Shown piece after piece: positions 3,183-56,524 of a stretch of DNA of 64,000 bases (position 1 is its first letter; each line of letters starts with the position of its first letter). The notes under the pieces were generated by a model. That model had not been told where the DNA came from and searched no databases. It saw only the letters and a program-made list of their open reading frames with translations. The position numbers and the translations under genes are program-made. The DNA lies in the NCBI GenBank assembly GCA_964016885.1, contig OZ024741.1, forward strand, positions 321,036,001 to 321,100,000, given 5' to 3'. The DNA is from Eledone cirrhosa (taxonomy: Eukaryota).

Positions 3183-3322
3183 ATAACGAAGGAAATGTGG
3201 TAAGGAACCAGATGGACCATAACGCACCAGAGTACTCAATACTTAGGGTAGTAGAGTGGGTAATAGGAAAATGTTTGACCTCGACGGCAGAGCTCAAGCC
3301 GTTTCGACGGCTATTTCTGGGC
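3183..3322 (-). repeat. 3' fragment of the U3-A8 HHR element family
   Basis: Reverse complement of ...agccgtcgaaacggcttgagctc...ccactctactaccctaagtattgagtactctggtgcgttatggtccatctggttccttaccacatttccttcgtt, which recurs at 11.8, 21.2, 28.7, 29.4 and 39.3 kb; flanked by (TA)n. Confidence 0.85.
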
Positions 3323-3681
3323 TACTATATATATATATATATATACAAATGAATATATGATAGGGATAAACACTGATACAAGTATACATGTGTTCGCATT
3401 ACAAATGACCAAGTTAGCTAGATTGAAAAATACTAATTAAAATAATACGGTTTGCCTGTCTCGATTTAAAATAATAAATCAATAAAAACAAACCTATATT
3501 GGCAATAGCCGTGATACCTGGACAAATTTAAATTTATATATATAATATATATATATATGCAAAGAGTTGTTGGTTATTCAACAAATTTAATTATAACAGT
3601 TTCGAAGCACTCTACAGTATTCTTCTGGAGTATAATATCAATGATATAAATAAATGGAAACTACCTTTATAAAACCATATT

Positions 3682-3742
3682 TATTTTATTATATATATTT
3701 CAAGGGTACCAACATTTTGGTACTCTCTCATCAGATAAAATA
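3682..3742 (-). ncRNA. Minimal type I hammerhead ribozyme
   Basis: Minus strand reads TATTTTAT-CTGATGA-GAGAGTACCAA aatg TTGGTACCCTT-GAAA-TATATA-TA-ATAAAATA; palindromic stem III; AUA triplet. Confidence 0.75.
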
Positions 3743-3919
3743 CAAAAGTTGTTTTATAAATATTGACATATCCAAAAAACAAAAACTTATCGTTTTAAGT
3801 TCTATTCAAACAGAACTTAAAACGATAAGTTCTTGTTTTGGGGATATGTCAATATTTATAAAACAACTTTTGTATTTTATCTGATGAGAGCGTATCAAAA
3901 TGTTGGTACCCTTGAAATA

Positions 3920-4687
3920 TCTGTATATATACATAAAGACGAAGTTTTCTGTATGTGTGTGTATGTGTGTGTGGACCATTTTTAATGCGGGCTCATATAT
4001 TCTAAACCATTCATGCGATTTCTTTGAATTTTTTACAGAACTCCTCCTTGCACAAAACCTGTACATGATCTACAAAGGCTTTCAAAAATCGATATTGGGG
4101 CCTTTGGAGACATTAAAAAAGTTTCGGTTATTTGTGTCAATTTTCGTGATTAAGTAAGACAATAGTTATCTTTAAGTAAGACAAGAGTTATCTTTCGTAA
4201 TTAGGCTCATTCAGATTTTAATTTACTCTTTGTACTTGAAACAAAAGGTACGCTTCCTTGTGACTAACAATATCATTTTGTATATTTCACAACCAGCAAT
4301 TTCTAACAGATTACTAAGTTAAGTTATAGATTTGACATTGTATAATTTATCCTTTCAAGCTTGATGTTCATACATTAAGTGATGTCAAAACTGTTACAAT
4401 ATTATGCTTTGTACATAATAGTGTCTATTATTCACTTCACTCCTCTATTTCATGATGCGCTTTTACTGTTGTCAAACAAATTTATACGTAGACTGGATTT
4501 CTGTTGTTACATGGTATAACGGATGACACCGAGCTCACATATCAATTATTTCGCTGGAATAGTGCCTAAGGTTTTCATGTTTACATAAAGTACGTTTTTC
4601 TTCTATGTATTCAAATTTACTTTGTTTAGTTTAGTGAGCTACATCGAAAGCTACTTGAACCGTCCAAAGGACGGGTGGTTTAGCTAG
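3920..4687 (+). mobile_element. Non-autonomous Helitron
   Basis: Begins TC(tgtatatatacataaa) and ends CTAG; subterminal hairpin CCGTCC-aaa-GGACGG (4660-4674); inserted between A and T with no TSD. Removing it restores gaaatatatataataaaa, identical to the other arm of the host hairpin. Confidence 0.85.
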
Positions 4688-5683: not shown

Positions 5684-5816
<133 letters not shown>

Positions 5817-5952
5817 CTGGAACTAGGTGTCAAAACAGCAAGAGCTCAGCCAACAAGTCTCGACTCCTTATAATATAACCATACTCTACTACCCCAAATA
5901 TCGAGTACTCTGTCGACTAATGGTATAACTAGTTCAAACTGAATCCATCATG

Positions 5953-6007
<55 letters not shown>

Positions 6008-6011
<4 letters not shown>

Positions 6012-6906
6012 AGTTAATATAAATTAATATATGATAAACACCAATATAAACATATAAGCGTTTGCATTGTAAACGACCAAGTTAGCTAGATTGAAAAATA
6101 CTAATTAGATTAATACAGTTTGCCTGTCTCGATTTAAAATAATAAATCAATAAAAACAAACCATATTGGCAATAGCCGTGATACCTGGACAAATTTAAAT
6201 TTCAAAATCAAAACCTGTTCCGCAGACAAATTTAAATTTCAAAACCCAAATAAGTTTCGCAACGATAATTTAAAAAAGTGAAAAATTCACGGCTCAGAAA
6301 TACTTCTTTCTTTGAGCTAATTAATTGTAAAAGACTGTTTGAGTTTATAACTCTAAATATAATATTTAACGGCTCCTGTTGTTGAGCTAAATTTTAATCC
6401 CATATAGAAAGCTGTTATTTCTAGCAGCATGAGTATGGGGCTAGCTAGGAGCTGGAAAACCACGTGCTTTAACACTTAACTACCAGTCCTACAAAAATAT
6501 TTCGAGGTGAAACATGCTAATTTCTGGATTCCTGTTGATGACCACAGGAATTGGATTTTTCACTTTTTTAAATTATCGTTGCGAAATTTATTTGGGTTTT
6601 GAAATTTAAATTTGTCTGCGGAACAGGTTTGGATTTTGAAATTTAAATTTGTCCAGGTATCACGGCTATTGCCAATACGGGTTTGTTTTTATTGATTTAT
6701 TATTTTAAATCGAGACAGGCAAACTGTATTAATCTAATTAGTATTTTTCAATCTAGCTAACTTGGTCGTTTACAATGCAAACGCTTATATGTTTATATTG
6801 GTGTTTATCATATATTAATTTATATTAACTTGTATTTCACGGCTCAGAAATGCTTCTTTCTTTGAGCTAATTAATTGTAAAAGACTGTTTGAGTTTATAA
6901 CTCTAA

Positions 6907-6915: not shown

Positions 6916-6983
<68 letters not shown>

Positions 6984-7187
6984 CGTTTCTGAATTTGTTT
7001 AGCAAGATACTTTATCTGAAATCGTGTGTTGAAACCGATATTGTTATACTTTGGGAGGGTCATGTTGCCAATAAGAAACACACGCACCAGTTGCTTTCAC
7101 TTCAATTTATTATAAATTTATAAATTTATAAATTTATAAATTTATGGTTGGTTGGTTGGTTTCACAACCAGATAGTTGTTTATATAT

Positions 7188-7232
7188 AGTCATAGTTCTT
7201 TCGTCACACACTCTGTGACCTCTTCAGTGACT
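7188..7232 (-). ncRNA. Minimal type I HHR in PLE 3' pLTR
   Basis: AGTCA-CTGAAGA-G-GTCACA gagtg TGTGAC-GAAA-GAAC-TA-TGACT; stem I AGTCA/TGACT; one extra nucleotide after the core. Confidence 0.7.
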
Positions 7233-7432
7233 GGGGATTCCTTTCTTTGTTTCTGTGCCTCTCCTTTGTTCTGTCCTACGCCATTTTGTTTCTGTGTGTG
7301 TGTTGTGTGCTCAGTCTGCGCATGCGCCACATCCGGGTGTCTGTGTGTGTTTATGTTCATTTATTTATTTGTTTATTTACATGTTACTGGTTGGTTGTTT
7401 GTTCTGTGTGTGTGTGTGTTTTCATTTTGTCC

Positions 7433-9287
7433 TTAATTGTAAGTTGTGATGTTGCTGTTCCACTCATATTTTCTATTTAATTTTGGTTGTAATTCTTTTA
7501 TGTTTATTGCCTCTGTAATTTGTCTAAACATTGCGTCTTTTCTGTGTGTAGATTCTATTTTTATTTCTATGTTCTCTAATTTACCCTTGTGTTCTATCTT
7601 AGCATGTTGGTAGAGTACATATGATTCTTTATTATCTTGAAGGTCTCGCCAGTGTTCATTTATCCGTTCCCCTACACTACGAGCTGTCTCACCTATGTAC
7701 ATTATATTTTTGTCTCTACATTGTCCTTCAGTACATCTTATGCTATACACTATATTTCTAGTTTTACAGTTAATATGGGGGCTTATTTTACAGGTTATAC
7801 ATTTCTTATCTATACATGAGGGTCTTTGAAAAGGGTATGTCTTGCTAATAAGTGTTTTTACGGAGGTACCTGGTCTTTCTACTATCTTAATATTGAGTTT
7901 ATGTTTATTTAGGGCCCTTCTAAATTTGTAAGCTAATTCACCTCTCGGGGTTGTATTGATGAACATTACACTCTGGTATTTATTGCTATCATACCATGAG
8001 TTTATTCTATTAGCCTTGTTCCTAGTTCTTTCTATTCTATTCCAAACTTTGCTCCTATACAAGGGGCAGGTCCCATTTATGTCATTATTTACCATTTTTT
8101 CCCATTTGGTTCTGGCTCCTCTATACACTCTGATTTTATCTCTCTGATTGTAGCCAGAGAACTGCATACGGTGGATGAAGTGTTGTATGTGTCTCTCTAG
8201 TTCTTCGGGGTTGCACATGCGGGACACATTTCTCATCACCCGTACCAAATCCGCAATCAGTATGTTGATTTTGGTATGGTCCGAAATGGCCGAGTTTCGG
8301 TGGATCAGATGTTTGGAAGTCATGGGTTTGGCATAATGGGAATGGAGGATTTGTTTTTTGTTGTTAATGGTATCTAACCAGAGCTCTGTGTCTAGTACAG
8401 GTAATCGATGGTTGGGGTGTTTACTTGGGTAGTCTATAGTAACTCTAATGCTCTGGTGGATGGAGTTTGCTATTTGCTGGATGCTTTCCATTGTGTTTTT
8501 CTCTAGTTCCTGACTGTTCTCTAGTGGGGGTGTCTTAACTACGATGTTTATATCATCTACATAGCGGGAGTACATTATCAGGGTTAAGGGGTCTTCTAAT
8601 TGTTCTTTAAGTTTAAGTTTAAGTCTACTGTCCCACCATACCATGAATAAGTTAGCTATGTCGCCTGCAATGCTAACACCAATGGCTGCTCCTTCCTCTT
8701 GGGCATATGTTTTTCCATTAAATTTGAACATATGTTCCTTAAGGGTTAGTTTTATGCTGGCCCCTACCGCATGTGCAATCATTTTCTTCAGTTCATCGTG
8801 GTTTTCGGGTGTCCGTATGGCTCTGGTCCACCCGTTCCATCTATCTGTGTGGGTTTTCTTGGCCATTGAGGTAATGGTAGGTGGTCTGCCTCTTGCTGGT
8901 CTTGTAGGGCACAGGTTGCTAAGGTCATATGTGTCTAGGTAACTATTACTATAGGTGAGCTTAAGTAGGAGTCCCAGCTCACTGGTATCAATCCCACAGA
9001 ACTCAACCTTGCTCTCACTGATCATTTCTACGCATTTCTCCACAGCAAAATCCACGTCAATAGATGGATACAGGGACACAACATCCATACTGCCTATTAT
9101 GCAGTTTGTTAGGTCCCCAGATCGGTTACTCACGCCGATTCTGCTGAGGAGGTCCTCCGTGCTGTCACATACATCTGGGGACATTTCAATGATGGGGCGT
9201 ATGATAAGGGAGAGGAAGTAGGACAGTCTGTAGTTACTAGCAATGTTAGCTCCACAGACTGGCCGTGTTGGTGGTCCCGTGACAGGG
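7433..9287 (-). CDS. PLE reverse transcriptase + Cys-rich linker + GIY-YIG endonuclease (N-terminally truncated, otherwise open; possibly Naiad-like clade)
   Basis: Motifs PPTRPVCGA, SMDVVSLYPSI, QEEGAAIG, RYVDD, LPVLD, CxxxxCxxC, VYSIRC...YIGETARS..ER..EH, EAINI...LN. The first codons of the called ORF (9288-9325) come from the inverted repeat. Clade assignment is tentative. Confidence 0.92.
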
Positions 9288-9744
9288 TAAGATAGTAGAA
9301 AGACCAGGTACCTCCGTAAAAACACTTATTAGCAAGACATACCCTTTTCAAAGACCCTCATGTATAGATAAGAAATGTATAACCTGTAAAATAAGCCCCC
9401 ATATTAACTGTAAAACTAGAAATGTAGTGTATAGCATAAGATGTACTGAAGGACAATGTAGAGACAAAAATATAATGTACATAGGTGAGACAGCTCGTAG
9501 TGTAGGGGAACGGATAAATGAACACTGGCGAGACCTTCAAGATAATAAAGAATCATCTGTACTCTACCAACATGCTAAGATAGAACACAATGGTAAATTA
9601 GAGAACATAGAAATAAAAATAGAATCTACACACAGAAAAGACGCAATGTTTAGACAAATTACAGAGGCAATAAACATAAAAGAATTACAACCAAAATTAA
9701 ATAGAAAATATGAGTGGAACAGCAATATCACAACTTACAATTAA
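9288..9744 (+). pseudogene. Duplicated GIY-YIG C-terminal fragment inside the inverted pLTR
   Basis: Near-identical inverse copy of the ORF 3' end (YIGETARS...EWNSNITTYN). Confidence 0.9.
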
Positions 9745-9849
9745 GGACAAAATGAAAACACACACACACATAGAACAAACAACCAACCAGTAACATGTAA
9801 ATAAACAAATAAATAAATGAACATAAACACACACAGACACCCGGATGTG

Positions 9850-9859
9850 GCGCATGCGC
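9850..9859. promoter_or_regulatory. GCGCATGCGC palindrome (NRF1/EWG-type site) in pLTR, next to CCGGATGT (ETS-like)
   Basis: Exact palindrome here, at 7318-7327, and in the unrelated PLE at 57325-57334; function is inferred. Confidence 0.4.
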
Positions 9860-9946
9860 AGACTGAGCACACAACACACACACACAGAAACAAAATGGCG
9901 TAGGACAGAACAAAGGAGAGGCACAGAAACAAAGAAAGGAATCCCC

Positions 9947-9991
9947 AGTCACTGAAGAGGTCACAGAGTGTGTGACGAAAGAACTATGACT
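9947..9991 (+). ncRNA. Minimal type I HHR in the inverted pLTR
   Basis: Identical to the 7188-7232 motif: CTGAAGA 9952-9958, GAAA 9977-9980. Confidence 0.7.
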
Positions 9992-10133
9992 ATATATAAA
10001 CAACTATCTGGTTGTGGAACCAACCAACCAACCAGAAATTTATAAATTTATAAATTTATAAATATATAATAAATTGAAGTGAAAGCAACTGGTGCGTGGG
10101 TTTCTTATTGGCAACATGACCCTCCCAAAGTAT

Positions 10134-10250
<117 letters not shown>

Positions 10251-10962: not shown

Positions 10963-11093
10963 TTGTTACATCAGTATTAGTTATTTGTATTAAAACATTT
11001 GTAAAGTGTTAAAATATTATAAAAAGTCTATTTTATCAACTTAATTTATTATATATATAATTATATATATATATATATATAGGAACCAGTAAG

Positions 11094-11187
11094 ACCCCGA
11101 CGGCTGAGCTCAAGCCGTTTCGACGGCTAATTCTGGACTAAATGAAAATTTATCCTGGTATTTAAATAGCCGATCTTCTCAAGGGGT
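11094..11187 (-). ncRNA. Second (inverted) copy of the U3-A8 hammerhead
   Basis: Reverse complement of 11714-11807 with one loop difference. Confidence 0.72.
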
Positions 11188-11713
11188 AATTCCATATATG
11201 GTCAAAGTGATTGTCAAAAGTCAGTAGTAATTCTGTGATTGCAAATTACGTATGATTTACGTACTTATACCTCTTAAAAGGGTCCTAGCCTATTCCGTCC
11301 CACCTAGTTCATTTACTTATTTCGTTATTTCTTTATTTCTTTCTTTACTTCTTTCTTTCTTTATTTATTTATTTATCTAGCCTAACAATAGCTAGAGACT
11401 TAGGTCGTAGAACTTGCTTTACTTTTTTCTTTACACTTATTCGCTTTTCTTCACTCTCAGTATTTTTTCTTTCATATATATTTTTACCCCTCATTGTTCT
11501 ACCTACCGTTCCGACTTCCTCCCCCTCCCCCTCCCCAGTATCTTCTTTGACCTCATGCCCAGCTGTAGCTGGCACTACCAACGCTTGATTGGGTCTACTC
11601 CACCCCCTCCCCTCTTTCTCCTACTGGCTGGTTTAGCCACCATCTCCCCTACTAATTTGCAATCACAGAATTACTACTGACTTTTGACAATCACTTTGAC
11701 CATATATGGAATT

Positions 11714-11807
11714 ACCCCTTGAGAAGATCGGCTATTTAAATACCAGGATAAGTTTTCATTTAGTCCAGAATTAGCCGTCGAAACGGCTTGAGCTCAGCCG
11801 TCGGGGT
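11714..11807 (+). ncRNA. Type I hammerhead with U3-A8 core variant (UUGAGAA)
   Basis: Stem I ACCCC/GGGGT (extended GGAATT/GGTTCC); core TTGAGAA; stem II GA-T-CGGCT...AGCCG-TC; GAAA; stem III CGGC/GCCG with palindromic TGAGCTCA loop; GUC triplet. Confidence 0.72.
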
Positions 11808-12458
11808 CTTACTGGTTCCTATTACCCACTCTACTACCCCAAGTATTGAGTACTTTGGTGCGTTATGGTCCACCTGGTTCCTTACCACATTTCCTTCGTT
11901 ATATATATATATATATATATATGCATAAGTATATCTATCCGAGCATTAAACAAACTGACAGTTATTGTATGAGACATTTTGTACTAAAGGCATAAGTATA
12001 GTGAATTAGCATTATTTCCCTCAAATCCCGCCGAGGTTAACTTTGCCTTTCATCCTTACAGGGTCGATAAAATAAAGTACCAGTAATGCACTGGGTATTG
12101 CTGGCCTTGTGCCTAAAGTAGAAACAATTATTTCACTGTGAAATTATGTATGTTTCTATATCCTTAGTATTGTATTTGTTATTCTTTTTCATTGGGAGCG
12201 TAGAAGTATATATAAATTATAAAATAAGTAAATGTATTCATATTATGCTATTCAATTTACTGGTGCCATATCAATATGCGTACGAGTATGTGTGACTGTA
12301 AATTTTACCCTCCGTTGACCTTGCAGTTGTCAATAATGGACTGTCATTAAGTGCATAGAACTAATGATACATTCATAATTGTCTACCTTAAGTTCTTTCA
12401 TAAACACTCTTAGAGAAGTTAAAGATTTTAAATATGTGCCTATATATATATATATATA

Positions 12459-19275: not shown

Positions 19276-19686
19276 AAAAGAGTACCATTGGAAGTTACCG
19301 ATTTAAACTAAAAAGATGTTTGAGAAAGTAGAATGTATTGTAATGAGTTACTCCCAAACGACTGAGCTCTTGCCGTTTCGACTTCGCGTGTATATATACT
19401 TGCATGTGTGTATGTGTTTCTATGTTTGTAAGCGTGCGTATATGAGAATGTGTGTGTGTGTGCGCGCGCGTGTCTGAGTATGTGTGTGTGTGCGTGTGTG
19501 TGAGTGTATGAGTTACCAACAAGATATTATTATCGTTACCAACAAGATTATATTCATACTCAAGTTTTTATGACTTGAAATATAACTAGAAATTTATGTT
19601 AATATATGATATATTGGTTTTCAGTTCTCAGCTGCAACAGCTGAGACTAAAATATTTGCTTTACACTCACACACACATACACACAA

Positions 19687-20667: not shown

Positions 20668-21058
20668 GTGTGTGTGTATGTATGTCTATTTTTCTTTTGG
20701 TGGTGAATCTAAGCATATATGTAACACACACATGTGCGTGTGTGCGTGTGTGAGTTGCATGAGATTTTGTTGTTTCTGTAACTGACGAGATCTCCTGTGG
20801 ATTTCTTATCTAAATTAAATTATCGTTATGAGTCATTCATTATAAAATCGCAACCACAACCTCGCTTCTTTAGTTGTCTTAAATTTTAGATAACCCTGAG
20901 GCGAACTCTTTCACACTTTCCTTACATAAACTCTCTTTTACTGGGTCGTCATTTCTCTCCACTGTACACATAACAGTATATATATATGTTTGTGTGTGTG
21001 TGTATGTGTGTATGTATATGTACATGCATACATATATATGAATATATATATATATATA

Positions 21059-21262
21059 TAGGAACCAGTAAGACCCCGACAGCTGAGCTCAAGCCGTTTC
21101 GACGGCTAATTCTGGACTAATTTAGTCCAGAATTAGCCGTCGAAACGGCTTGAGGTCAGCTGTCGGGGTCTTACTGGTTCCTATTACCCACTCTACTACC
21201 TCAAGTATTGAGTACTTTGGTGCGTTATGGTCCACCTGGTTCCTTACCACATTTCCTTCGTT
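21059..21262 (+). repeat. Near-perfect hairpin plus tail fragment of the U3-A8 HHR family
   Basis: Arms 21059-21120 and 21122-21183 with a 1-nt spacer; tail to ccttcgtt; (TA)n flanks. Confidence 0.85.
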
Positions 21263-21491: not shown

Positions 21492-21609
21492 CATACATAT
21501 ATATATACATATATATATATATTAAAATACAAATATTAATAAAATAGATGTTCCTGTGATCAATTAAATTTTATTATACATATTTCAGAGGTATGTCATG
21601 TATCATTTT

Positions 21610-21662
21610 ATTTTATCTGATGAGGACGTACTGTTGTACCTCTGAAATATGTATAATAAAAT
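21610..21662 (+). ncRNA. Minimal type I hammerhead (related to 3682-3742) inside hairpin element 21520-21806
   Basis: ATTTTAT-CTGATGA-GGACGTAC tgtt GTACCTCT-GAAA-TATGTA-TA-ATAAAAT; shares tail motif tactgtagagtgcttc with the 3.6 kb element. Confidence 0.72.
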
Positions 21663-21802
21663 GTAATTGATCACAGGAACATCTATTTTATTAATATTTG
21701 TATTTTAATATTAATAACTCTGGAAAATATTTTTACTGTAGAGTGCTTCCAATCTCCTGTAAAACTCATTCTTTGATGTACACATTGAATCTTGTTTAAC
21801 TC

Positions 21803-21882
<80 letters not shown>

Positions 21883-22753
21883 ATATTATCTTTTCCTCTA
21901 TATTTCCTTCTTCCCCCCATCTCTTCCTAGTCCTTCCACCCCAGATCTCCTTCCTTGTCTCTTTTTTTCACCTTTTCGCCTACCCCGATGCAGCCCATCG
22001 GTCCTCTGTAGCCTCAGTACCCCCACCCCCCCTAATTTTAAGATAGAATTGTCCGATTACGCTTTTTATACCAGATGTGTTAGACCCCAGTAAATTGTTT
22101 TCTTTCTGGTTGCTGCTCCATTTCTGTGATTTCTAAATTTCTTAGTGGTATTTTTGTAGTAGTATTTCTGAATTAGTATTCTGAATTAATATTTCGTATT
22201 AGTATTTTTGTAGTAGTATTTTAGTATTTTTGTTCTCAACTTATTAACCTGTCATTGCAAGATAGCAATTGGCTGATTACTAACTATCTATAGCAGTGGA
22301 GTTACACCCCTGTAAAGCCGGCTTTATAAAATTCTTTCACTACAATCTCGTATTTAGTATTTTTCTCCACCTATTAAACTTTTCTATACTTAGCAATACT
22401 AATGAGAGATTTGGTGATTGTGGAAATGGAGTAGTAACCAGAAATTGTTTTTTATATATTTATTTCCTTATTTTTATAATGGTTTTTTTGTTTACTCCCT
22501 TTCGATTTACCTATTCTTTCACCCCCCCCCCTTCTCCAGTACACTTTTTTCGACCTTCTGTACACTATCCTTAGAATCTGCTGTATAGATTTCACTTTCA
22601 ACGGTTGACTGGGTTTCCCCCACTCCCTCTTTGTTCTACCGGCAAGTTCAGCTACCCCTACCTTCCACCAAATGCCATGATAGAATCATCTGTCTTTACA
22701 ACAAATTTTTGACCAATCCTTTTGACAATTACTATCTTCCCATATAAGGAATT

Positions 22754-22849
22754 ATCCCCTGAGAAGTTCGGCTATTTATTTACCAGGCTAAAAATTCTTG
22801 TTTAGTCCAGAATTAGCCGTTGAAACGGCTTGAGTTCTGCCGTCGGGGT
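22754..22849 (+). ncRNA. Diverged U3-A8-family hammerhead (core CTGAGAA, C3-A8 mismatch)
   Basis: ATCCC-CTGAGAA-GTTCGGCT...AGCCGTT-GAAA-CGGC..GCCG-TC-GGGGT; ends at ttcct followed by (AT)n. Confidence 0.55.
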
Positions 22850-22983
22850 CATACTTGTTCCTATATATATATATATACATTCATTTAGGTTTGTTGGTTC
22901 ACCACTGGATAGAACTGTGTGGCCGCCTTCTTGTCTCTCTACCTTTTCAGCCCCATGGATCATATTCCTTTGTTAAATTTCGA

Positions 22984-28619: not shown

Positions 28620-28811
28620 ATAGGAAAATGTTTAACCCCGACGGCAGAGCTCAAGGTATTTCGACGGCTATTTCTGGACTCGAGTCCAAAAATAGCCGTC
28701 GAAAGCTCTGCCGTCGGGATTAAACATTTTCCTGTTACCCACTCTACTACACTAAGTATTGAGTACTCTGGTGCATTATGGTCCATCTGGTTCCTTACCG
28801 CATCTCCTTCG

Positions 28812-28813
<2 letters not shown>
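28620..28813 (+). repeat. Hairpin plus tail fragment of the U3-A8 family
   Basis: Inverted arms centred on ggactcgagtcc; same tail. Confidence 0.8.
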
Positions 28814-29188: not shown

Positions 29189-29265
<77 letters not shown>

Positions 29266-29268
<3 letters not shown>

Positions 29269-29457
29269 GAAAAGAGTCAGAACTCCGACGGCTGAGCTCC
29301 GGCCGTTTCGACAGTTACATCAAACCTAGTTATCGAAACGGCCGGAGTTCAGCCGTCGGAGTCCTGACTCTTTTCCTATTACCCACTCTACTACCCTAAG
29401 TATCGAGTACTCTGGTGCGTTATGGTCCACCTGGTTCCTTACTATACTCCCTTCGTT
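29266..29457 (+). repeat. Hairpin plus tail fragment, diverged subfamily of the U3-A8 family
   Basis: taggaaaagagtcag..ccgtttcga / tcgaaacgg..ctgactcttttccta arms; GAAA-CGGC..GCCG-TC retained. Confidence 0.75.
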
Positions 29458-39243: not shown

Positions 39244-39390
39244 TATACATATATTTATACATATTTCCCACTCTACTACCCTAAGTATTGAGTACTCTGG
39301 TGCGTTATGGTCCATCTGGTTCCTTACCACAATTCCTTTGTTATACATATATATATATATATATACATACATATATAAATATATAAACAT

Positions 39391-41955: not shown

Positions 41956-44900
41956 CTACAGGATGGTATACAGAGAAGGCCCATTTACACGAGCCATTCT
42001 CGCCACTATCACCCACCTTTCATAAAACTGCCTGTGGCCAAGCACCTCTCTCTCCATTCTTATCCTTCTTCCGAAGTGATATCGGAAGAAGTAGACCAGA
42101 CTATGGCCAGAGAGGAAGTTGCCTGACCTCAGACCTTTCAATCGTGTCCACCAAACAACCTCTTTCAACATGGCTATTACGCACAGAAAAACCGCCTTTG
42201 CTTCCTTTGTGAAGAGGGGAGGCGGTTTGATTGTCATCACGGACACGGCGGTCAATTGAATCGGCGCCACCCGCGACAGCAGTTGTTCGGCGTAGCCCCA
42301 CAGATCAGCCACGCCCGGACATTGCACCAATGCGTGCGCAACGGTTTCTTCGTGACGCACGCATCTAGGGCAAATCTTTTTTGAGGAATCCCTGCCCGGG
42401 CGCCCGTGTCTGTAGAGCCTCTCTCGAACGGGTAGAGCCCCCCGGTAGCACTGCCAGGCCAGTGACTTCTGGAAGTTGTCCATTGGTCCTGGGCCGAAAG
42501 TCCTACCGAACAGGCTGGCCAGTTCGTCTTCTTCCATGTCCAGCGACTCTCCAATGGTGTCATCGCCCCCTGCTAGCCACCAGCCCTCTATAGAATGATG
42601 AGGTGGATTCTCCACCGATGGCCTGGCCCGCTTGCCAGAGAGCCCTGAGCGCCTGAGAACACTCAGTGTGCCAGTCTCCCAGTTTTCCGGATCTTTGCTT
42701 GACCCGAGACTGTAGCTCGGTGAGCGAGACGAGTCTCGGAAAGGCTCGTTTCACGAACGGAGCCCACACCGGTTGACCAGTGAGGAATACCTGTAGGTGC
42801 CGTAGCCTTAATGCGTGCCTACGCATCATCAACCACGGCATCCCCAGCCCTCCTTTCGAAGGTTGTTGGCAGCAGATGGATCTTCTCACCATAGGAGGAC
42901 GCTTCTTCCAAAGAAATTGGAAGAGCATGCGTTCCATGGTGGTGAGTGTTTCCTTAGGGCAAGGCACGACAGTCAGGCGGTAGTAAGTGACGGACGCTAT
43001 GTAAATGTTCGCTACCTCCGCCCGGCCTTTTAGGGACAGCTTACACTTGGCCCATTTCTGGGTTAGTGCAAACACCTTGTTCGTAACCTCGTTCCAGTTC
43101 TTTTCCACCTGGAGGTCCGGTCCAAACCAGACCCCAAGCAACTTTACCGGGCCCTCCGTCCAGTGTCCGACGACACCGTCAGGAGGCATCGGTCTGCCTC
43201 TCCACGTTCCGAGTTGCAGCCCGATGGATTTTTCCCGGTTCAGTTTCGCTCCTGACAACCTTTCGTACTCCTCCAGTAAGGTACCGATCGCCTCGATCTC
43301 CGAGTCGGTTGATACCATTACTGTTACGTCATCGGCGTAGGCCGACACCGCTTTGCTCAATCCTGGTTCCAGGGGGATACCCTGCAACAACTCCAACTTC
43401 CTCAGTAAAGGCTCGAGAGTCAATACGTACAGAAGGGAGGAGAGAGGGCACCCCTGGAATGGATCGAATGGATCGTGTGATTTCGAACGGCTTCGAAAGG
43501 TAGCCGTTCACCTTGATCCTAGAACAGATGTGGTTGCTATGTAGGGCAGTGATCCAGCCTCTGAAAACAGGACCGAACCCAGCCGCCGCTAGCACCGCAT
43601 CCAGGTAACCATGGTCGACCCTATCGAAGGCCTTAGACTGATCCAAGTTGATCAGGGCCCCACCGAAGCCGGGTTTGTTGCCAACCCTCTCTATGATGTA
43701 TCGCATGAGGTGGAGGTTATCGTGAATGGACCTGGATGGGATAGCACATGTCTGCGCATCTCCCACCAGGCCACCCACGACAAGCGCCAACCTCTTTGCT
43801 AACACCTTGGCCAAAATCTTTAACTCTGTGTTTAGCAGGGTTATGGGCCGAAAATTATTTATACTATCCCCCTTGTTCTCGTCCTTCCTCACCAGCGTGA
43901 CTACGCCCTTGGCTACAGAACAAGGAATTCTCCCGTTCTGCTGCCAATTGCAGTAGACCGCTTCGAGGAGTTCGGAGAAGAAGACCGGCATTGCTAAATA
44001 AAGTTCGTAAGGTATACCATCGAGACCTGGAGATTTGCGTCTGCTGCATTGGCTCAGCGCATCTCCGATCTCATCAGCCGAGATTGGTCCCTCGCAGGAC
44101 TCTGCCTCTTCACTCGAGAGACGCGGCAGGCCGTCGAGGTATGGACCGAAATCCACGCTCCCGCCCGGACCCTCGCCTCCCCCGAACAATCGGGCAAAGT
44201 GCCTTTGAAAGGCCTCGCACATCTGCTTAGGCTCCCGGATCACCCGTCCATCTTCGTCTTGCAACGACCGGATGGTGGATCGATTTCCACTCTTAGCTTC
44301 TGTCACGCGGGCCCATCCAACGGCTTTGGCCCCCTCATTACCTAGAGCACGTATTTTACTTCGAATGACGCAGCCTTCGTGCTTTGCATCGAAAAACTGG
44401 TTCAAGGCCGTCCTCGATGCCAGCACTCTGGCCACCTCTTCGCTCTTGATTGCCTCTTCTAATTTACCTGTTAATTCTTTCTCGTTTCTATTCCTATCGG
44501 CAGCTAACATCTTGCTATAACTTATTGATTCTGTTCTAATCTCTCTTTTGAGAGATGCCCACCATCGGTTGTTGACGATTGCACCCGTCAACCTCTCCTT
44601 AACTAATCTGCTAATCCGGTTTCTGTAAGTCTCTTTTGCCGGTAAAGACAAATTAAGTTTCCAGTAACCGGGACCCTGTCTATGTGTTTTCTCGAGATTG
44701 ACCACGCAGGTCACTAATTTGTGATCCGTGTAGCCAACCGTGCGCATTTCTGGACAGCTTAATATGTCCCTATCCTTACTTCTAACTAAGAATCTATCTA
44801 AGTACGATCTAGATTGACCACTGTGGTTTCTCCAAGTCCAGGTAGGCACAGTTGGAAAATCTAGTCGATATCTATCGACCAAGTTAAAACGGTCGAGTAA

Positions 44901-45401
44901 CCCCTTGAGGCTGTTACACCCCCCTCTATTAGGACATGCTCCTGCATAGTCCCAACGTGCATCCAGGATGTCATTCCAATCCCCCGCTAGAAGCAGGGAA
45001 CGCGACGTTCCCAGAAAAGTCTCTAAACGCTGGAAGAAGTCGGGCCGTTCAGCTCCGAAAGGGGAGTAGACGGCGACCAGTCTCAAGGCCGCACTTTCAC
45101 TACTGCCAACGTCTAGCACCAACAAACGACCCTCCGGGTCCGAGTGCACAACCTGTATGGCAAGACCCAGGTGTTTTTGCAGCAGTACGACAATCCCACC
45201 CCCACCTCCAGGTTGACAGAGAGATGCATGCACCTCAAAGTCATCGAAAGTGGGGGCCAGCTGCCGCACGACGCTGATTCGAGTCTCACAGATAACCATT
45301 ACATTTATACTACATGACCTGAGGTCATTTAGAAGCTTTGCTTGCTTCCAAGTTGAGCCCAGGCCACGTGCATTCAAACATCCTACTCTTAACACATCCA
45401 T
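41956..45401 (-). pseudogene. ORF2: apurinic endonuclease, reverse transcriptase, C-terminal CCHC (zf-RVT), two frameshifts
   Basis: LNARGL, GDWN, SYLDRF, TDH; FRPITLLN, DQSKAFDRVDH, YADD; CPRC..ETVAHALVQC across ORFs 43329-45401, 42560-43423 and 41956-42615. Confidence 0.92.
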
Positions 45402-45434
45402 GTGGGCGGCAGAGCCAAAGGAGAGTGTAGAGAC

Positions 45435-46274
45435 CTACCTTTCCGCTTCCCGGGGTTCGGGTTGCACGACTTCCATGGGGTCGGGGGTGTTGGGTGAAGG
45501 GGTGTCTTGTGGTGGTGTGGGGTCGTCAGTGTGTGGTGGGGTTGGGGTGTTTGGAGTTGTGTTGGGGAGGGGAAGGGGAGGGGGAAAGCTTTTTAGTAGG
45601 ACGCGGTTTATGGGTTTGACAGAGGGTGGTCCTACGTCCTCCTTAAAATCCTTTTTTAGTTTTTGGTAGAGGTTCATTGGGATCTTTATTAGTTTTAAAT
45701 GTGGGTAGTTTTCTGACGAAACAAAGTTTACACCTTCGGTTTGTACCGAAGGATTATTGTATATGAGCTCATTTAATTTATTATTGTTTCTGTTGATGTA
45801 AGTATAGTGTAATGTCTTTTTTTCCGATGGTGTGAGTGTTTCGAAGAGGGGAGGGGCAGGTTTGGTTTTGTTTGTTGCTGGAGGGGTGTTTTCTGTTTTG
45901 TTGGATTGTGTTGAGATTTGGGTGGGGGTTGTTTGTCCTTGTGTGTTTTGCACATGTTTTCTTTTTTTCCTTTTAATCTGTCTGAAGGACTCTGTTTCTT
46001 CCTCCGAATTCGTTGGGTTATCTTCAGTGTTGGAGGGAAGAGGTATGTTTGCTGGTAATGTTTCCGTGTTGGTTTTCTTTGTGGGGGAGATGGATGTCAC
46101 TATGTTAGACTGTGTTGTGTGTTGTGTCTGCGGTGGTTGTGTTGTTTTATTGAGTGAGAGGTTGGGTGGGCCTGTATTTTGTTTTGGGGTAATGTGTTGT
46201 GACTGTTTGTGTTGTGGTGGTGTTGTGGTTTTACTGAGGGACGGGTTGGGTGGGACTGAGTTTTGTTGTTTGTT

Positions 46275-46275
<1 letters not shown>
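45435..46275 (-). pseudogene. LINE ORF1 C-terminal low-complexity (P/T/Q-rich) region
   Basis: Open frame ending ...PMEVVQPEPREAER just upstream of ORF2; homologous ending in copy E. Confidence 0.7.
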
Positions 46276-46343
<68 letters not shown>

Positions 46344-46385
46344 TGTCGGTATGAAGGGATTTAGGTAGGGAGGTAAGTAGATATA

Positions 46386-48223
46386 TTTCTTTATTTGCCA
46401 CAAGGGTGAACAAGAAAAGGGGACAATACAAAGACACATGCCGGGGATTTTACATACAGTCGTGTAAAAATATTGAAACAAACAATTATAACAATCGAAA
46501 TCCCCAACAGGGGGGAGGCGCCACGAATGGATTGTTTTATACTCCGTCGATAGAACAACCCTCAATTTCAGGGGCGTGTTGTGCAAGTGCTCCTTTCTTC
46601 CTTTGACTCTCTTCTTTAACCTACAGGCTTAAAAACAGAAAAGGCCCAATCACTCGGGCCATTTTCGCTTCATTCACCCACCTTTCAGTAAATTTACTGG
46701 GGTGCAGTGCCCCTCTCTCCACTCTGATTCTCCTTCTAAAGTGATACTTAAAGAAGGGAATCGATTGTTGTCCGGAGAGAAAGGCATCTGTCCTCAGTCC
46801 TCTCAATCTCGTCCACCATATAACCTCTTTCACAATAGCCACTGTACAGAGAAAAACCGCCTCTCTTTCGTTTTTGAAAGAGGCTGGTGGTTTGATCCTG
46901 GCAGTCAACTGGATTTGTGCCATACGCGACAGAAGTTGTTCTGCATAGTTCCACAGGTCGCTTACGCCCGGGCAGTGTACAATTGCGTGCAAAACGGTTT
47001 CAATGTCCTGCTCGCATCTTGGGCACGTCCTCTTGGAAGGATCCCTGCCGAGGCGTCCGTGCCTGTAGATCTTATCTCGACCGAGTAGAGCTCCTCGGTA
47101 GAACTGGGGGGCCAGGGACCTCGGGAAGTTGTCCATAGGTTCCGGGCGGAGAGTCCTACCGAACAGACTGGTGAGCTCGTCGTCTTCGACCCCTAGAGTC
47201 TCCCCGAGCACGTCGTCGCACTTGTAAAGTACTAACCCACTATAGAATGTCGAACTGGAGTCTCCACTGATTGCTGTTCCCGCTTGGCAGAGGACTGTGA
47301 GCGCCTTGGCGCATTCAATGTGCCAGGCGCCCATCTTCTTCGGTCTTCGCTTCAACCAGGACTGCAGCTCCGTCAGCGAGACAAGTTGTGGGAAGGCCTG
47401 TCTCAGAAACGGTGCCCACACCGGTTGGTCGGTGAGCAATACCTGGAGATGCCGTAGCCTCAGCGCATGTTTGCGCATCATTAGCCACGGCATTCCCAGC
47501 CCTCCGTTGGAAGGGTGTTGACAGCAGACGGATCTCCTCACCAGTGGAGCCTGCTTCTTCCACAGGAACTGGAAGAACATGCGTTCCATCTTGGTGAGGT
47601 TTCACGGGGACAAGGCACGATAGTCAAGATGTAGTAGATGACGGATGCTAAGAAAGTGTTCGCCACCTCCGCTCGACCTTTCAAAGACAGTTTGCACTCT
47701 GCCCTCTTCTGGGTGAGCGCAAATACCTTGGCCATGACCTCGTTCCAGTTTCACCAGTCCTTCCGTCCAGCGTCCGACGACGCTGTCGGATGGCATCGAT
47801 TTGCCTCTCCACGTTCCGAGTTGCAAACCGACAGAATTGTCAGGGTTCAGTTTTGCTCCTGTGAACCTTTCGTATTCCTGTAGTAGGTTGCCGATTACCT
47901 TGATTTCCGAGGTTTTCGACACCATTACCGTCACGTTGTCGGCAGAAGCCGACGCCGCTTTTCGCAGTCCCGGTTCTAAAGGGATGCCCTGCAAAAGCTC
48001 CAACTTCCGCAGTAGTAGCTCTAGAGTCAATATGTACATAATGGAGGAGAGAGGGAATCCCTGACGAATGGATCACGTGATTGCGAACGGCTCCGATAGG
48101 TAGCCGTTCACCTTAACCCTCGAGCAGATGCTAGTGTGTATCGCCATGATCCAGCCTCAGAAAACGGGACCGAACCGTCCGCCTTGAGAACAGCTTCCAA
48201 GTATCGATGGTCGACCTTATCGA
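46386..48223 (-). mobile_element. L1/Tx1-like LINE copy B, 5'-truncated in RT
   Basis: Homologous ORF2 C-terminal fragments; same 3' UTR motif; (GATA)n on both sides. Confidence 0.9.
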
Positions 48224-48271
<48 letters not shown>

Positions 48272-48272
48272 A

Positions 48273-49647
48273 TTTCTTTATTAGCCACAAGGGCACAAAA
48301 GAAGGGGACAAATACAAATGGGGAGTTTACATACAGGTATATGAAAATAAAACTATTAATAAAACAACAAATAACAATTGAAATCCGCAATATGGGGGGA
48401 GGTGTTACACAGGGGTTGTACACACCCCGAAAAAATGTACAACCCTCATCTCCAGGAGCACCAAGAGTGAGTACTCCCTTCCTCTCTTCCTATTTTTTCT
48501 CAACCTACAGGCTTATATAGAGAGAAGGCCCAACCACTCGGGCCATCTTTGCCACATTCACCCACCTTTTATAAAATTTGCTTGGATACAGTACCTCTCT
48601 CTCCCTCCTGATTCTTCTTTCAAAATGATATTTGAAAAAACGAATCAGTTGTTCACCGGAGAGAAAGGTGTCTGACCTCAGCCCTTTTAACCTCGTCCAC
48701 CATATAACCTCTTTCACCATAGCCATAACACATAGGAAAACCGCCTCTCCCTCGTTTTTGAAGGAGGGTGGCGGTTTGATCATGACAATGGACTCGGTGG
48801 TCAACTGGATTGGTCCCACCCGCGACAATAGTCGTTCTACATAGCCCCACAGGTCGGTAACGCCCGGGCAGTGTACAAATGCGTGCGCGACGGTTTCCTC
48901 ATCGCGCACGCATCTCGGACAGATATTTTTCGAAGGGTCCCTACCCGGGCACCCGTGTCTATAGAGCTTGTCTCGAACTGGTAGAGCTCCTCGGTAGCAC
49001 TGCCAGGCCAGGGACTTTTGGAAGTTGTCCATTGGTCCCGGGCGGAAGGTCCTACTGAACAGACTGGCCAGTTCGTCTTCCTCTACGCCTAGAGTTTCTC
49101 CGAGCGTGTCGTCGCATTTGCTGCGGACCAACCCTCTATAGAATGTCGAAGTGGAGTCTCCACTGATCGCCGGGTCCGTTTGCCAGAGGACTGTGAGCGC
49201 TTGAGCACATTCGATATGCTAGTCGCCCATTTTCCTCGGTCTTTGCTTGACCCAAGTCTGCAGCTCGGTCAGCGAGACGAGTCGTGGGAAGGCTCGCCTC
49301 ACGAACGGGGCCCACACCGGTTGTCTGGTGAGGAATACGTGGAGGTGCCGCAGCCTGAGCGCGTGTTTCCGCATCGTCAGCCACGGCAACCCCAGCCCTC
49401 CGTTTGAAGGGTGTTGGCAGAAGATGGATCTTCTCACCAAAGGAGCCCGTTTCTTCCAAAGGAATTGGAAGAGCGCGCGCTCCATTTTGGTGAGCGTTTT
49501 GGCTGGACAAGGCACAACGGTCAAGCGGTAGTAGATGACGGACGCTATAAAAGTGTTCGTCACCTCCGCTCGACCTTTCAAGGATAGTTTGCACTCGGCC
49601 CACTTCTGGGTGAGCGCAAACACCTTGGCCGTCACCTCGTTTCAGTT
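48273..49647 (-). mobile_element. L1/Tx1-like LINE copy C
   Basis: LSLKGRAEV...GGLG...CPRC homology; (GATA)n on both sides. Confidence 0.9.
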
Positions 49648-49679
49648 CGATATGCCAGTCAGATAGATAGGTCGGTAGG

Positions 49680-49737
<58 letters not shown>

Positions 49738-49739
49738 TA

Positions 49740-49827
49740 TTTCTTTATTAGCCACAGGGGCACAAAAGAAGGGGACAAATACAAAGGGGGAAGTTTACAT
49801 ACAATAAAAACGTGTAAAATGTTATCA
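49740..49827 (-). mobile_element. L1/Tx1-like LINE copy D (3' UTR only)
   Basis: ttctttattagccacaggggcacaaaagaaggggacaaatacaaagggg between two (GATA)n runs. Confidence 0.85.
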
Positions 49828-49879
49828 CAGATAGATAGATAGATAGATAGAAAGATAGATAGATAGATAGATAGATAAG

Positions 49880-52800
49880 TTTCTATTTATTTGCCACTAG
49901 GGCACAACAGAAGGGGACAAATACAAGGGGGGAGTTTACATAAAGGAACGAGTAAAAAACAAATAACAAATATAAAATAAACAATACAGTCCTCAATAGG
50001 GAGGAGGCGTTTTGGGGGTTACACACACCCCCGAAAAAGTGTGCAACCCTTTTCCTTAGGAGCACAGAGAGGGGGTGCTCATTTGCACTTCCATCTTTCC
50101 ACCTACAGGCTGATAAAGAGAGAAGGCCCATTCACACGGGCCATTCTCGCTACTTTCACCCACCTTTCATAAAACTTACTGGGGTAGAGCACCTCTCTCT
50201 CCATTCTGATCCTTCTCTTAAAATGGTATTTAAAGAAAAGGACCAGTTGTTGGCCGGAGAGAAAGGTGTCCGACCTCAGCCCCTTTCAAACGTGTCCACC
50301 ATACCACCTCTTTCACCATTGCTATTACACAGAGGAAAACCGCCTCTCGTTCATTTTTGAAGGGGGGAGGCGGATTGATCGTTACAATGGATTCAGTGGT
50401 CAACCGGATTGGTCCCACCCGTGACAGCAGTCGTTCGACATAGCCCCACAGATTGGCAACGCCCGAGCAGTGTACCAATGCGTGCGCAACGGTTACCTCG
50501 TCGCGCACGCATCTGGGACAGATTTTTTTAGAGGGCTCCCTACACGGGCGCCCGTGTATGTAGAGATTTTCTCGAACGGGCAGCGCCCCTCTGTAGCACT
50601 GCCAGGCCAGGGACTTCTGGAAGTTGTCCATAGGTCCCGGGCCAAATGTCCTGCGAATAAGCTGGCCAGTTCGTCTACCTCCATGCCTGGGGCTTGGCCG
50701 AGGGCGTCGTCGCACCTACTAACCACCAGCCCTCTACAGAATGACGAGGTGGAGTCTCCGCCGATAGCCGGGTCCGCCTGCCAGAGAGCCGTGACCGCCT
50801 GGGCACACTCGGTGTACCAGGCGCCCAGTTTTCTCGGTTTTTGCTTGACCCAGGACTGCAGCTCGGTGAGCGAGACGAGTCTCGGAAAGGCTCGCCTCAC
50901 AAACGGGGCCCACACCGGTTGACGATAAGGAATACCTGGAGGTGCCGTAGCCTTAATGCGTGTTTACGCATCAACAGCCACTGCATTCCCAGCCCTCCTT
51001 TCGAAGGGTGTTGACAGCAGATGGATCTCCTCACCAAAGGAGCCCGCTTCTTCCAAAGGAATTGGAAGAGTGCGCGCTCCATTTTGATGAGCGTTTCCCT
51101 TGGGCAAGGCACGACGGTCAGGCGGTAATAGATGACGGACGCTATATAAGCGTTCGCCACCTCCGCCCGACCTTTCAGGGATATTTTGCACTCAGCCCAC
51201 TTCCGCGTCAGCGCAAACACCTTGTTCGATACCTCACCTCAGTTCTTCTCCACCTGGAGGTCTGGCCCAAACCAGACCCCGAGCAACTTCACCGGGCCCT
51301 CCGTCCAACGTCCGACGACGCCGTTGGAGACCCCTCCACCCGCCCCTCCACTCGCCAAGTTGCAAACCGACAGACTTGTCCCGGTTCAGCTTAGCCTGTA
51401 AACGTTTCGTATTCCTCCAGTAAGGTGCCGATCACTCCGATTTCCGAGGCGGTTGACACCATTACTGTCACGTCATCGGCGTAGGCCGACACCGCTTTCC
51501 GCAATCCCGGTTACAAAGGGGTGCCCCGTGAAAAACACCAAACTACCGCAGCAGTGGCTCTAGGGCCAATACATACAGAAGGGAGGAGAGAGGGCATCCC
51601 TGTCGGATGGACCGCGTGATTTCGAACGGCTCCGAGAGGTAGCCGTTCACCTTGACCCTAGAGCAGATGCGGCTAGTGTGCATGGCAGTTATCCAGCCCC
51701 TGAAAACGGGTCCGAAATCTGCCGCCACTAGCACCGCATCCAGGTAACGATGGTCGACCCTATCGAATGCCTTAGATTGATCCAAGTTGATCAGGATCCC
51801 ACCAAAGCCGGGTTCGTTCCCAACCCTCTCTATGATGTATCGCATGAGATGGAGGTTGTCGTGAATGGACCTGGACGGATGGCGCATGTCTGCGCATCTC
51901 CCACCAAGTTTCTCACCACAAGCGCCAACCTCTTTGCTAACACCTTGGCCAAAATCTTTAACTCTGCATTTAGCAGTGTTATGGGCCTAAAATTAATTAT
52001 TTCATCCTCCTTGTTCTCGTCCTTCCTCACTAGCGAGACTACGCCCTTGGTCACAGAACAGGGAATTCTCCCGTTCTGTTGCCAGTTGCAGTAGACCGGT
52101 TCGAGGAGATCGAAGAACATGTCCGGCATACTTAAATACAGTTCGTATGGAAGACCATCGAGGCCCGGAGATTTGCGTCTGCGGCATTGGCTCAGCACGT
52201 CCCCTATCTCAGCAGCTGAGCATCGTCCGAAAGACGCGGCAGGCCGTCGAGGAATGGACCGAGGTCCACATCCCCATCCGGCCCCTCGCCCCTTCCGAAC
52301 AATCGGTCAAAGTGCCTTTGAAAGGCCTCGCACATCTGCTTGGGTTCAAGGATCACCCGTCCATCCTGGTCTCGCAAAGACCGTATAGTGGATCTAGTCC
52401 CACTTTTGGCTTCTGTCACGCGGGCCCAGCTAACAGCTTTGGTCCCCTCGTTTCCCAGAGCACGTATTTTGCTTCGGACAACGCAGCCTTAATGTTTCGT
52501 GTCGAAGAACTGGCCCAAGGCCGTTCTCGACGCTAGCACTCTGGCTACGTCGCCGCTTCTAATTGCCTCTTCTACACTATCTACCAACTCCCTTTCCTTC
52601 CTATTTCTATCTGAGGCTAACTCCTTACTAACTCCTATTGAAGCTACTCTAATCTCTCTTTTGAGAGAGCCCCACCACTTGCTGTTGACGATGGCGCCCG
52701 TCAACCGCTCCTTAACTAATTTACTAATTTCTTGTAAGCTTTACTTGCCGGTAAGGACAAGTTGAGCTTCCAGTAACCGGATCCCTGTCTATGCGTTCTA

Positions 52801-53684
52801 TCAAGGTTGACCATGGAGGTCACTAACTTGTGGTCTGAATAGCCAACCATGAGCATTTTTGGACAACTTAAAAAGTCCCTATCATTATTTCTAACGAAGA
52901 ACCTATCTAGGTACGATCTAGATTGACCGCTGTGGTTTCTCTAAGTCCAGATTGGCACAGTCGGAAAATCTAGTCGATATCTATCGGCCAGGTTGAATCG
53001 GCCGATTAACCCCTTGAGGCTGTTACAACCCCCTCTATCAGGACATGCCCCTACATAGTCCCAACGTACATCTAGGAGACCATTCCAGTCCCCCACTAAA
53101 AGCAAGGAGCGGGACGTCCCTAGAAAGGTCTCCTGACGATGGAAGAAGTCCGGCCGCGTTGACCCAAAAGGGCCGTAGATGGCGACCAGCCTAAAAGCTC
53201 CGCCTTCACCACTGCCAATGTCCAGAACCACTAGTCGACCCTCCGGATCCAAGTGTACCGTCTATGTAGCGAGACCCAGATGTTTTTGCAGCAGAACGAC
53301 AACCCCACCCCCACCTCCGGGCTGACAGAGAGATGCGTGCATCTCAAAGTCATCAAAGGTGGGGGCCAGCTGTCGCACGCTGCTGATCCGGGCCTCGCAA
53401 ATAACCATCACATTTATACATCGTGACCTGAGGTCATTTAGAAGCATTGCTTGCTTCCAAGGTGAGCCCTGGCCAGGCGCATTTAGACAACCTATTCTCA
53501 ACACAGCCATGTTGGTGGTAAAGAGAAAAGGCACTTACCTTTCTGCGTCCCGGGGACCGGGCCGCACAATTTCCATGGGGGTGGGGGATGGGTTGTTGGG
53601 TGGGGTGGTGGTTTGTGGAAGTGTAGGGGCATCAGTGTGTGGTGGGGTTGGGATGTTTGGCGTCGTGTGGGTGTCTGGGGGGGG
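49880..53684 (-). mobile_element. L1/Tx1-like LINE copy E (full but multiply frameshifted ORF2, ORF1 tip)
   Basis: ORF2 ATG at 53510 (MAVLRIGCLNA); APE, RT (QGCPLS, YADD region) and zinc-knuckle fragments. Confidence 0.9.
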
Positions 53685-56321: not shown

Positions 56322-56524
56322 ATATATATTTATATATATTTATATATATATGGTATCCCATAAAATGTATTGCTGTTGTTGCTAGTGGGAGAGTAGGTGA
56401 TAGGTTGCGAGAAGCCGCTGTTAGCTAATGCCGTGTTATAGTAGGGTCTCGCTCTGTCAAAGATAGCCTTATTCGAGGAGAGGTTTGAGATTCTAGTACT
56501 GATAATATTTACGAAGTTTCTAAA

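Follow-up and report, generated by a model that had tools for sequence, protein, structure and literature searches.

The 820-bp element at positions 11081-11900 of the window (the window being the whole 64-kb stretch of DNA analysed here), which lies between (TA)n tracts, is likely a 5′-truncated, non-coding insertion of the pseudo-LTR of a Penelope-like element (PLE), mobilised by a PLE reverse transcriptase-endonuclease (RT-EN) from elsewhere. Longer copies of its family carry a type I hammerhead fold with the core UUGAGAA (U3-A8) that is predicted to cut slowly after 11802 and is probably dispensable for insertion. We put the probability of this combined reading at about 60%. It is largely an ordinary element, because the U3-A8 core has already been published and the majority of copies are truncated, with half of the core missing. 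Its value is as a natural test of the role of the PLE hammerhead in transposition, in that copies with no core or a mismatched core have spread and insertions cross the cleavage site.

Layout of the 11-kb element

Between its (TA)n flanks the element consists of an inverted 5′-truncated arm, a pyrimidine-rich body, a forward arm containing the hammerhead, and a tail at one arm only (Table 1). Because the inverted arm is a copy of 11653-11822, both strands carry the hammerhead. With one difference in 170 bases and shared family-rare alleles at 11663 and 11681, the arms fit a single source template and a recent insertion. The 3′ part of the body is the normal upstream sequence of the family: it aligns with the body of the longer copy at 22.4-22.7 kb, public reads and contigs cover 11408-11652, and it is likely the pseudo-LTR.

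Several features of PLE insertions are present, namely the inverted 5′-truncated copy, the one-sided tail between fixed 3′ ends, and a hammerhead with a palindromic loop III near the 3′ end. Published insertions of EN+ PLEs combine an inverted 5′-truncated copy with a one-sided tail and a microsatellite target (Craig et al. 2021, PMC8557442). With these elements, including the microsatellite-targeting Neptune and Naiad groups, the family shares the inverted truncated copy, the one-sided tail, the (TA)n location and very high invertebrate copy numbers. Naiads are without canonical hammerheads (PMC8557442), and the 11-kb element has no ORF by which it could be placed in a clade. The host element had been left unnamed in the preliminary description of this DNA; its layout is that of a Penelope-like insertion.

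The 11-kb element is not an autonomous EN+ PLE, since an ORF for RT and GIY-YIG domains is absent. All six frames are closed, with no ORF found in the element, and tblastn with the two PLE-type proteins of the window gave no match in the bodies of the 11-kb or 22-kb copies. The assignment to PLEs rests on layout, because neither an ORF nor an autonomous partner for the family was found in the window. At 78 nt the tail is longer than the 30-40 nt described for PLEs. A coding tail was considered, since in one frame three common tail variants are third-position changes, but stops interrupt this frame and the idea was rejected.

Table 1. Coordinates of the 11-kb element, its hammerhead, related copies and the neighbouring Penelope-like element (positions in the window).
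Feature	Position	Strand	Remarks
(TA)n left flank	11060..11080		likely target site
Inverted 5′-truncated arm	11079..11248	-	170-nt copy of 11653-11822, 99% complementary, 1 mismatch (11081-11248, copy of 11653-11820, within the element limits); full U3-A8 hammerhead at 11187-11094
Body	11249..11652	+	non-coding, pyrimidine-rich
Distal helix I, predicted	11708-11713/11814-11819	+	6 pairs, past a 6-nt bulge; whole fold 11708..11819
Stem I	11714-11718/11803-11807	+	5 pairs, open helix end
Core UUGAGAA	11719..11725	+	U3 = 11719, U4, G5, A6, G7, A8 = 11724, A9 = 11725
G10.1/C11.1	11726/11779	+	intact pair in the 11.7-kb copy
Stem II	11726-11734/11772-11779	+	11726..11779 with loop; 8 pairs as 2+6, one-base bulge, 37-nt loop
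GAAA	11780-11783	+	
Stem III	11783-11788/11796-11801	+	5-6 pairs
Palindromic loop III	11789-11796	+	UGAGCUCA
GUC site	C17 = 11802	+	predicted cleavage between 11802 and 11803
Tail	11823..11900	+	78 nt, one arm only, between fixed 3′ ends 11822 and 11900
(TA)n right flank	11900..11921		
Family copy with tail	3185..3324	-	starts at 11761 equivalent; no 5′ core
Divergent family copy	5813..5959	+	no 5′ core
Divergent family copy	19316..19382	-	absent from the earlier list; E 2.8e-7; no 5′ core
Short fold-back copy	21058..21262	+	63-nt inverted arm and tailed arm; no 5′ core
Long copy without tail	21870..22864	+	left end approximate; core CUGAGAA at 22759, C3·A8 mismatch, G10.1·U11.1
Short fold-back copy	28620..28813	+	8-nt deletion in forward-arm stem III; no 5′ core
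Short fold-back copy	29262..29457	+	another subfamily, with a changed 3′ strand of stem I; no 5′ core
Tail only	39262..39342	+	
Penelope-like element	6983-10140		ORF 7433-9325 (-), 630 codons, RT and GIY-YIG-type

Anatomy of the hammerhead motif

The preliminary description reported a well-formed hammerhead at 11.7 kb, with UUGAGAA, three stems, GAAA, a GUC site and a palindromic loop III, and both the sequence and the minimum free energy (MFE) fold bear this out. The type I fold spans 11714-11807 on the forward strand and has its mirror at 11187-11094 on the reverse strand. All 25 proposed pairs are Watson-Crick or G-U, and the MFE fold contains the three helices, the G10.1-C11.1 pair and an open stem I. 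The 11.7-kb copy carries the core bases of a hammerhead (U4 G5 A6 N7 A9, G12 A13 A14, A15.1-U16.1 and H17). Positions 3 and 8 pair in the hammerhead crystal structure; in this copy they are capable of Watson-Crick pairing (U11719-A11724), and a literal C3-G8 is absent.

A relaxed descriptor found four sites in the 64-kb window, two of them U-A (the two arms) and two C-G. On 20 block-shuffled windows it found a mean of 0.1 sites, with U-A matches in none of the shuffles, although this test is lenient because the descriptor was written after the motif had been seen. Rfam gave no match in the window at the gathering score, and at E≤10 the region 11600-11950 returned nine chance-level matches, none of them a hammerhead, in agreement with the earlier expectation that CUGANGA-based tools would miss the motif.

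The U3-A8 core is not a new variant: it was reported in natural hammerheads in 2011, as a few scattered examples with in vitro activity stated (Perreault et al., PMC3088659), and a 2014 study by Cervera and de la Pena (PMC4209133) found it in the hammerheads of PLEs. The 2011 examples have the same compensatory core, scattered there and in a repeat family here (PMC3088659). A descriptor with U3-A8 returned about 1,300 matches for the Cercyon PLEs of Schistosoma mansoni; two rows of the supplementary alignment begin UUGAUAAA and UUGAAAAA, and the same source describes a bulged stem II, a palindromic helix III and low in vitro activity (PMC4209133). The likeness of Cercyon to this family is one of described features: type I topology, U3-A8, a long stem II, a short proximal stem I, a palindromic helix or loop III, and mostly dispersed truncated copies, some in opposite-strand pairs (100-700 bp apart in Cercyon; PMC4209133). 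Unlike Cercyon, the present family has a stem III of 5-6 pairs that is monomer-capable and a 37-nt loop II. In addition, A9 is followed directly by G10.1, with no extra base, and there is a sister subfamily with C3·A8. The family would be a second animal lineage of U3-A8 PLE-type hammerheads, and it shows why CUGANGA and Rfam searches undercount them. No description of this family or of the C3·A8 subfamily was found in a literature search that had subscription journals outside its scope.

Family copies in the window

BLAST and nhmmer identified nine loci of the family in the 64-kb window, the 11-kb element included, and the 3′ half of the element is abundant in public runs, so the repeat is abundant, as had been suggested. 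All seven of the other fragments listed earlier were recovered, together with an eighth (19316-19382), but they are not copies of a U3-A8 ribozyme: seven of the eight are without the 5′ core, and the one at 22759 reads CUGAGAA. The 5′ core is kept at two of the nine loci, and U3-A8 at the 11-kb element only.

The outer ends of the copies are fixed and the inner ends are not. Inverted arms end at the equivalent of 11822 and tailed arms at the equivalent of 11900, nearly all against (TA)n, and inner ends lie at the equivalents of 11758, 11761, 11762 and 11778. Two arms are found at four of the nine loci, with arm lengths of about 60 to 170 nt and the same outer end throughout; the copies at 3.2 and 22.8 kb have a single arm. 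The fold-back junctions (21120, 28680, 29325 and joints in reads) are concentrated at the equivalent of 11758-11778, within loop II and the stem II 3′ strand, and two of them have an overlap of 1-4 nt. This clustering could reflect RT stalling or a short master RNA. Another fold-back repeat family (6020-6840 and 3380-3540) adjoins the 5.8-kb and 3.2-kb copies.

A two-sided compensatory change was found in 0 of the 25 pairs in a 12-row alignment, a test with little power because only two independent copies cover stems I and II. Of the 11 rows covering the GAGCUC of loop III, 7 retain it (one row has lost it to a deletion and three have one change), as does the 19.3-kb copy, and the two bases before it vary (UU, CG or AA). 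Retention of GAGCUC while the preceding bases vary is a modest sign that the palindrome may be under constraint.

Candidate copies from other sources were dismissed as chance matches: one pattern match in a metagenome lies on a GC-rich bacterial-type contig with only 28 bases alike, and three matches in viral contigs are alike over the 18 pattern bases only. A scan of viral contigs with the stem III pattern and a scan of prokaryote genomes with the tail pattern each gave 0 matches.

Core alleles in public sequencing runs

Part of the stretch is present in 18 of 22 public runs, and at least half of its words in 4 of 22; none is recorded as RNA. Four of the 22 runs were aligned to 11390-11900 at 80% likeness: X20, a RAD library cut at AATT, and X1 (both from organism A), X5 (organism B) and X6 (organism C). 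In X20, 25,686 of 12,467,656 RAD reads aligned on these 511 bases, and in X1, 22,386 of 17,142,217 contigs, with the 3′ half abundant. Stem III (11786-11803) was covered 43, 24 and 11 times more deeply than the core (11714-11731) in X20, X1 and X5. These ratios exaggerate truncation, as X20 ends accumulate at AATT (11769) and subfamilies with a diverged loop II drop out. Such subfamilies, missed at 80%, are visible as loose ends before 11758. X20 read ends at 11657, 11710-11713 and 11769 coincide with AATT and were attributed to the cutting of the library rather than to biology. With U3-A8 at one of nine window loci and a core this much rarer than the 3′ half in three runs, the earlier suggestion that the variant ribozyme itself is very high-copy is not supported.

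The preliminary description had proposed covariation of positions 3 and 8 as a check. In everything readable, position 3 is U or C and position 8 is A. At 11719, C is found in 54 of 345 X20 reads (16%), in 25% of the summed depth in X1 (43 contigs) and in 39% in X5 (1 contig); it was not seen in X6. Across 11390-11900, no place with an A>G difference at a frequency of at least 4% was found in X1, X5 or X6, and one was found in X20, possibly 11724. The eight differences of the X5 contig with C3 match eight rows elsewhere among the difference rows listed (40 of 109), and this contig therefore keeps A8. Thus, C3·A8 is a subfamily state present in two of the organisms. No covariation of 3 and 8 was seen among the aligned copies; more distant subfamilies could carry G8.

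These alleles bear most directly on the possibility, which we regard as the strongest competitor but still unlikely, that the element has the same PLE origin but no member of the family has a working ribozyme. Activity would have been lost early through a change of G8 to A, position 3 would since have drifted between C and U, and the hairpins would persist by descent or as a structure for RT binding or dimerisation. The frequency of C at position 3 and the lack of A>G at that level in X1 and X5 fit such a history, as do the C3·A8 core of the 22.76-kb copy, stems without compensatory changes and the coreless state of most copies. It is also reported that a single C3G or G8C change abolishes the Anolis PLE hammerhead and leaves insertion unaffected (PMC11167929). 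However, U3, the allele that restores the pair, is the majority among core-bearing reads, and the other core positions, G10.1-C11.1, A15.1-U16.1 and the GUC are intact at 11.7 kb; U3-A8 ribozymes are, moreover, stated to be active in vitro (PMC3088659).

A more speculative possibility, to which we give low odds, is that both steps of a compensatory core change have been kept as amplified sister subfamilies (C3·A8 and U3-A8, with no G8) in at least two organisms, or that the C3·A8 form is also active. If C3·A8 does cleave, whether as a dimer, with help from a protein or in a register without N7, then the accepted rule for the hammerhead core is too strict, and ribozymes of another class are being missed.

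Slightly less probable again is the picture closest to the original suggestion, a very high-copy family in which the U3-A8 ribozyme is selected and covaries with C3-G8 across subfamilies. The abundance of the 3′ half, in the window as in the RAD reads, agrees with it; diverged subfamilies of the 29.3-kb type, missed at 80%, may hold cores, possibly with C3-G8, and the one A>G place in X20 could be 11724. Yet the scarcity of U3-A8 among the window loci, the low depth at the core and the retention of A8 by the X5 contig with C3 all argue against it.

We consider it very improbable that the core register is off by one, with position 7 deleted, G11723 serving as G8 and A11725 as an extra base before G10.1. 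Both position-3 alleles would then be compatible (C-G and U·G), but deletion of N7 is not known to be tolerated. Most rows of the published alignment have eight bases before G10.1 (CUGANGAH), which favours a shift because this family has seven, but PLE hammerheads without the extra base are published in the same source (Marsupenaeus japonicus and Saccoglossus kowalevskii 2; PMC4209133).

A further alternative is equally hard to credit, namely a fold-back DNA transposon or MITE that has inverted repeats at its termini and targets TA, or else a tandem non-LTR retrozyme. The 170-nt inverted repeats, the TA flanks and a type I hammerhead in a non-coding repeat would suit one or the other, but the conserved 78-nt tail outside one arm means that the repeats are not terminal, arm length is variable with a fixed outer end, and single-arm copies occur. 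Metazoan non-LTR retrozymes are, like the 11-kb element, non-coding, with a type I hammerhead and a proposed derivation from PLEs, but in the account cited they are defined by tandem units that each carry a hammerhead (bioRxiv 10.64898/2026.07.22.740005), and head-to-tail units occur at 0 of the 9 window loci.

Predicted folding of the RNA

The hammerhead is the minimum-energy structure of 11705-11830, with a fold energy not better than that of shuffled sequences (z -0.50; 64 of 200 shuffles fold equally well). Pair probabilities of the isolated hammerhead helices are 0.54-0.99. The predicted probability of the hammerhead fold falls with context: 0.48 in 98-118 nt, 0.02 in 401 nt, 0.002 for the 652-nt body and 0 when the inverted arm is included. 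A read-through transcript of either strand at the 11-kb locus is predicted to form a 170-bp hairpin that would trap the ribozyme, and the locus would be expected to be silent unless transcription starts inside the body.

A dimer has a predicted energy of -67.3 kcal/mol versus 2 x -25.4 kcal/mol for the monomers, a predicted gain of 16.5 kcal/mol for a double hammerhead via loop III over two separate monomers, and the palindromic loop III would favour such a two-RNA structure. An isolated U3-A8 RNA would quite probably cleave in vitro. With two natural alleles at position 3 to compare, even an inexpensive cleavage assay would be informative.

Proposed route of insertion

The anatomy of the element, its fixed ends, the truncation and the allele frequencies are observed. 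For a truncated PLE pseudo-LTR insertion, the reading we prefer, we infer the partner enzyme and the order of events, as we do any cleavage. A GIY-YIG endonuclease would nick both strands of (TA)n, and the PLE protein would prime reverse transcription at 11900 and 11822 on uncut RNA. Both cDNAs would stop early, mostly at 11758-11778, and be joined back to back, giving an inverted arm and a one-sided tail. Insertion from uncut RNA would thereby allow coreless copies and the C3·A8 subfamily to spread.

In X20, depth passes from 15,450 to 14,670 across 11803 with no step up, and cut RNA is therefore not the usual template, unless it is re-ligated into a circle, which would be indistinguishable in these data. 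Behind 11822, 3,531 reads continue into (TA)n, and opposite-strand (fold-back) joints in reads cluster at 11758-11778.

A comparable route is described for the Poseidon element of Anolis carolinensis, in which two internal RT start sites delimit the tail, AT-rich DNA is cut and extended on both strands, and mutation of the hammerhead leaves insertion in vitro unaffected, cleavage needing the protein (Frangieh et al. 2024, PMC11167929). As described there, Poseidon shares with this family two fixed 3′ ends downstream of the hammerhead, a tail between them and an AT-rich target, and insertion from uncut RNA would be common to both. Poseidon encodes an RT-EN and has a C3-G8 core, whereas the 11-kb element has no ORF and a longer tail (PMC11167929). 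The spread of coreless and mismatched copies agrees with what was seen in vitro for the Anolis element.

Neighbouring elements in the window

The window is AT-rich and laden with microsatellites, contains LINE and Penelope-type ORFs, and is probably part of an animal genome. The Penelope-like element at 6983-10140 has the same layout as the 11-kb element, with an inverted partial copy (9283-10140) and a tail of about 55 nt. Its ORF has a CX4CXXC linker as in Neptune-type elements, and Pfam RVT_1 matches it only at E 4e-4, below the cut-off. Both of its pseudo-LTRs carry a canonical CUGAAGA minimal hammerhead (9952-9986 on the forward strand and 7227-7193 on the reverse). This element was considered as the master of the family and rejected, as its pseudo-LTR and tail are without DNA similarity to the family; it serves as a comparator rather than a shown master because of the different pseudo-LTR and the canonical core.

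Other elements nearby also bear hammerhead-like motifs. An ORF fragment at 56489-57420 (241 codons, no Pfam match) resembles a C-terminal GIY-YIG domain and is followed by a CUGAGGA minimal hammerhead-like motif near 57383. At 57935-58806, an inverted and partly duplicated repeat, apparently a further PLE-like family, has CUGAUGA hammerhead folds (58175-58117 on the reverse strand and 58498-58593 on the forward strand) with a long loop II and a full stem III. Related fold-back repeats at 21519-21720 and 3670-3935 have CUGAUGA, a hairpin, GAAA and a weak stem I, and are possible degenerate minimal hammerheads. A GC-rich cluster of LINE fragments occupies 41956-53811 (AP endonuclease-RT, Tx1/L1-like by eye), including a 701-codon frame at 43329-45434 on the reverse strand, and a fragment at 54634-55158 resembles, by eye, a Tc1/mariner DDE transposase.
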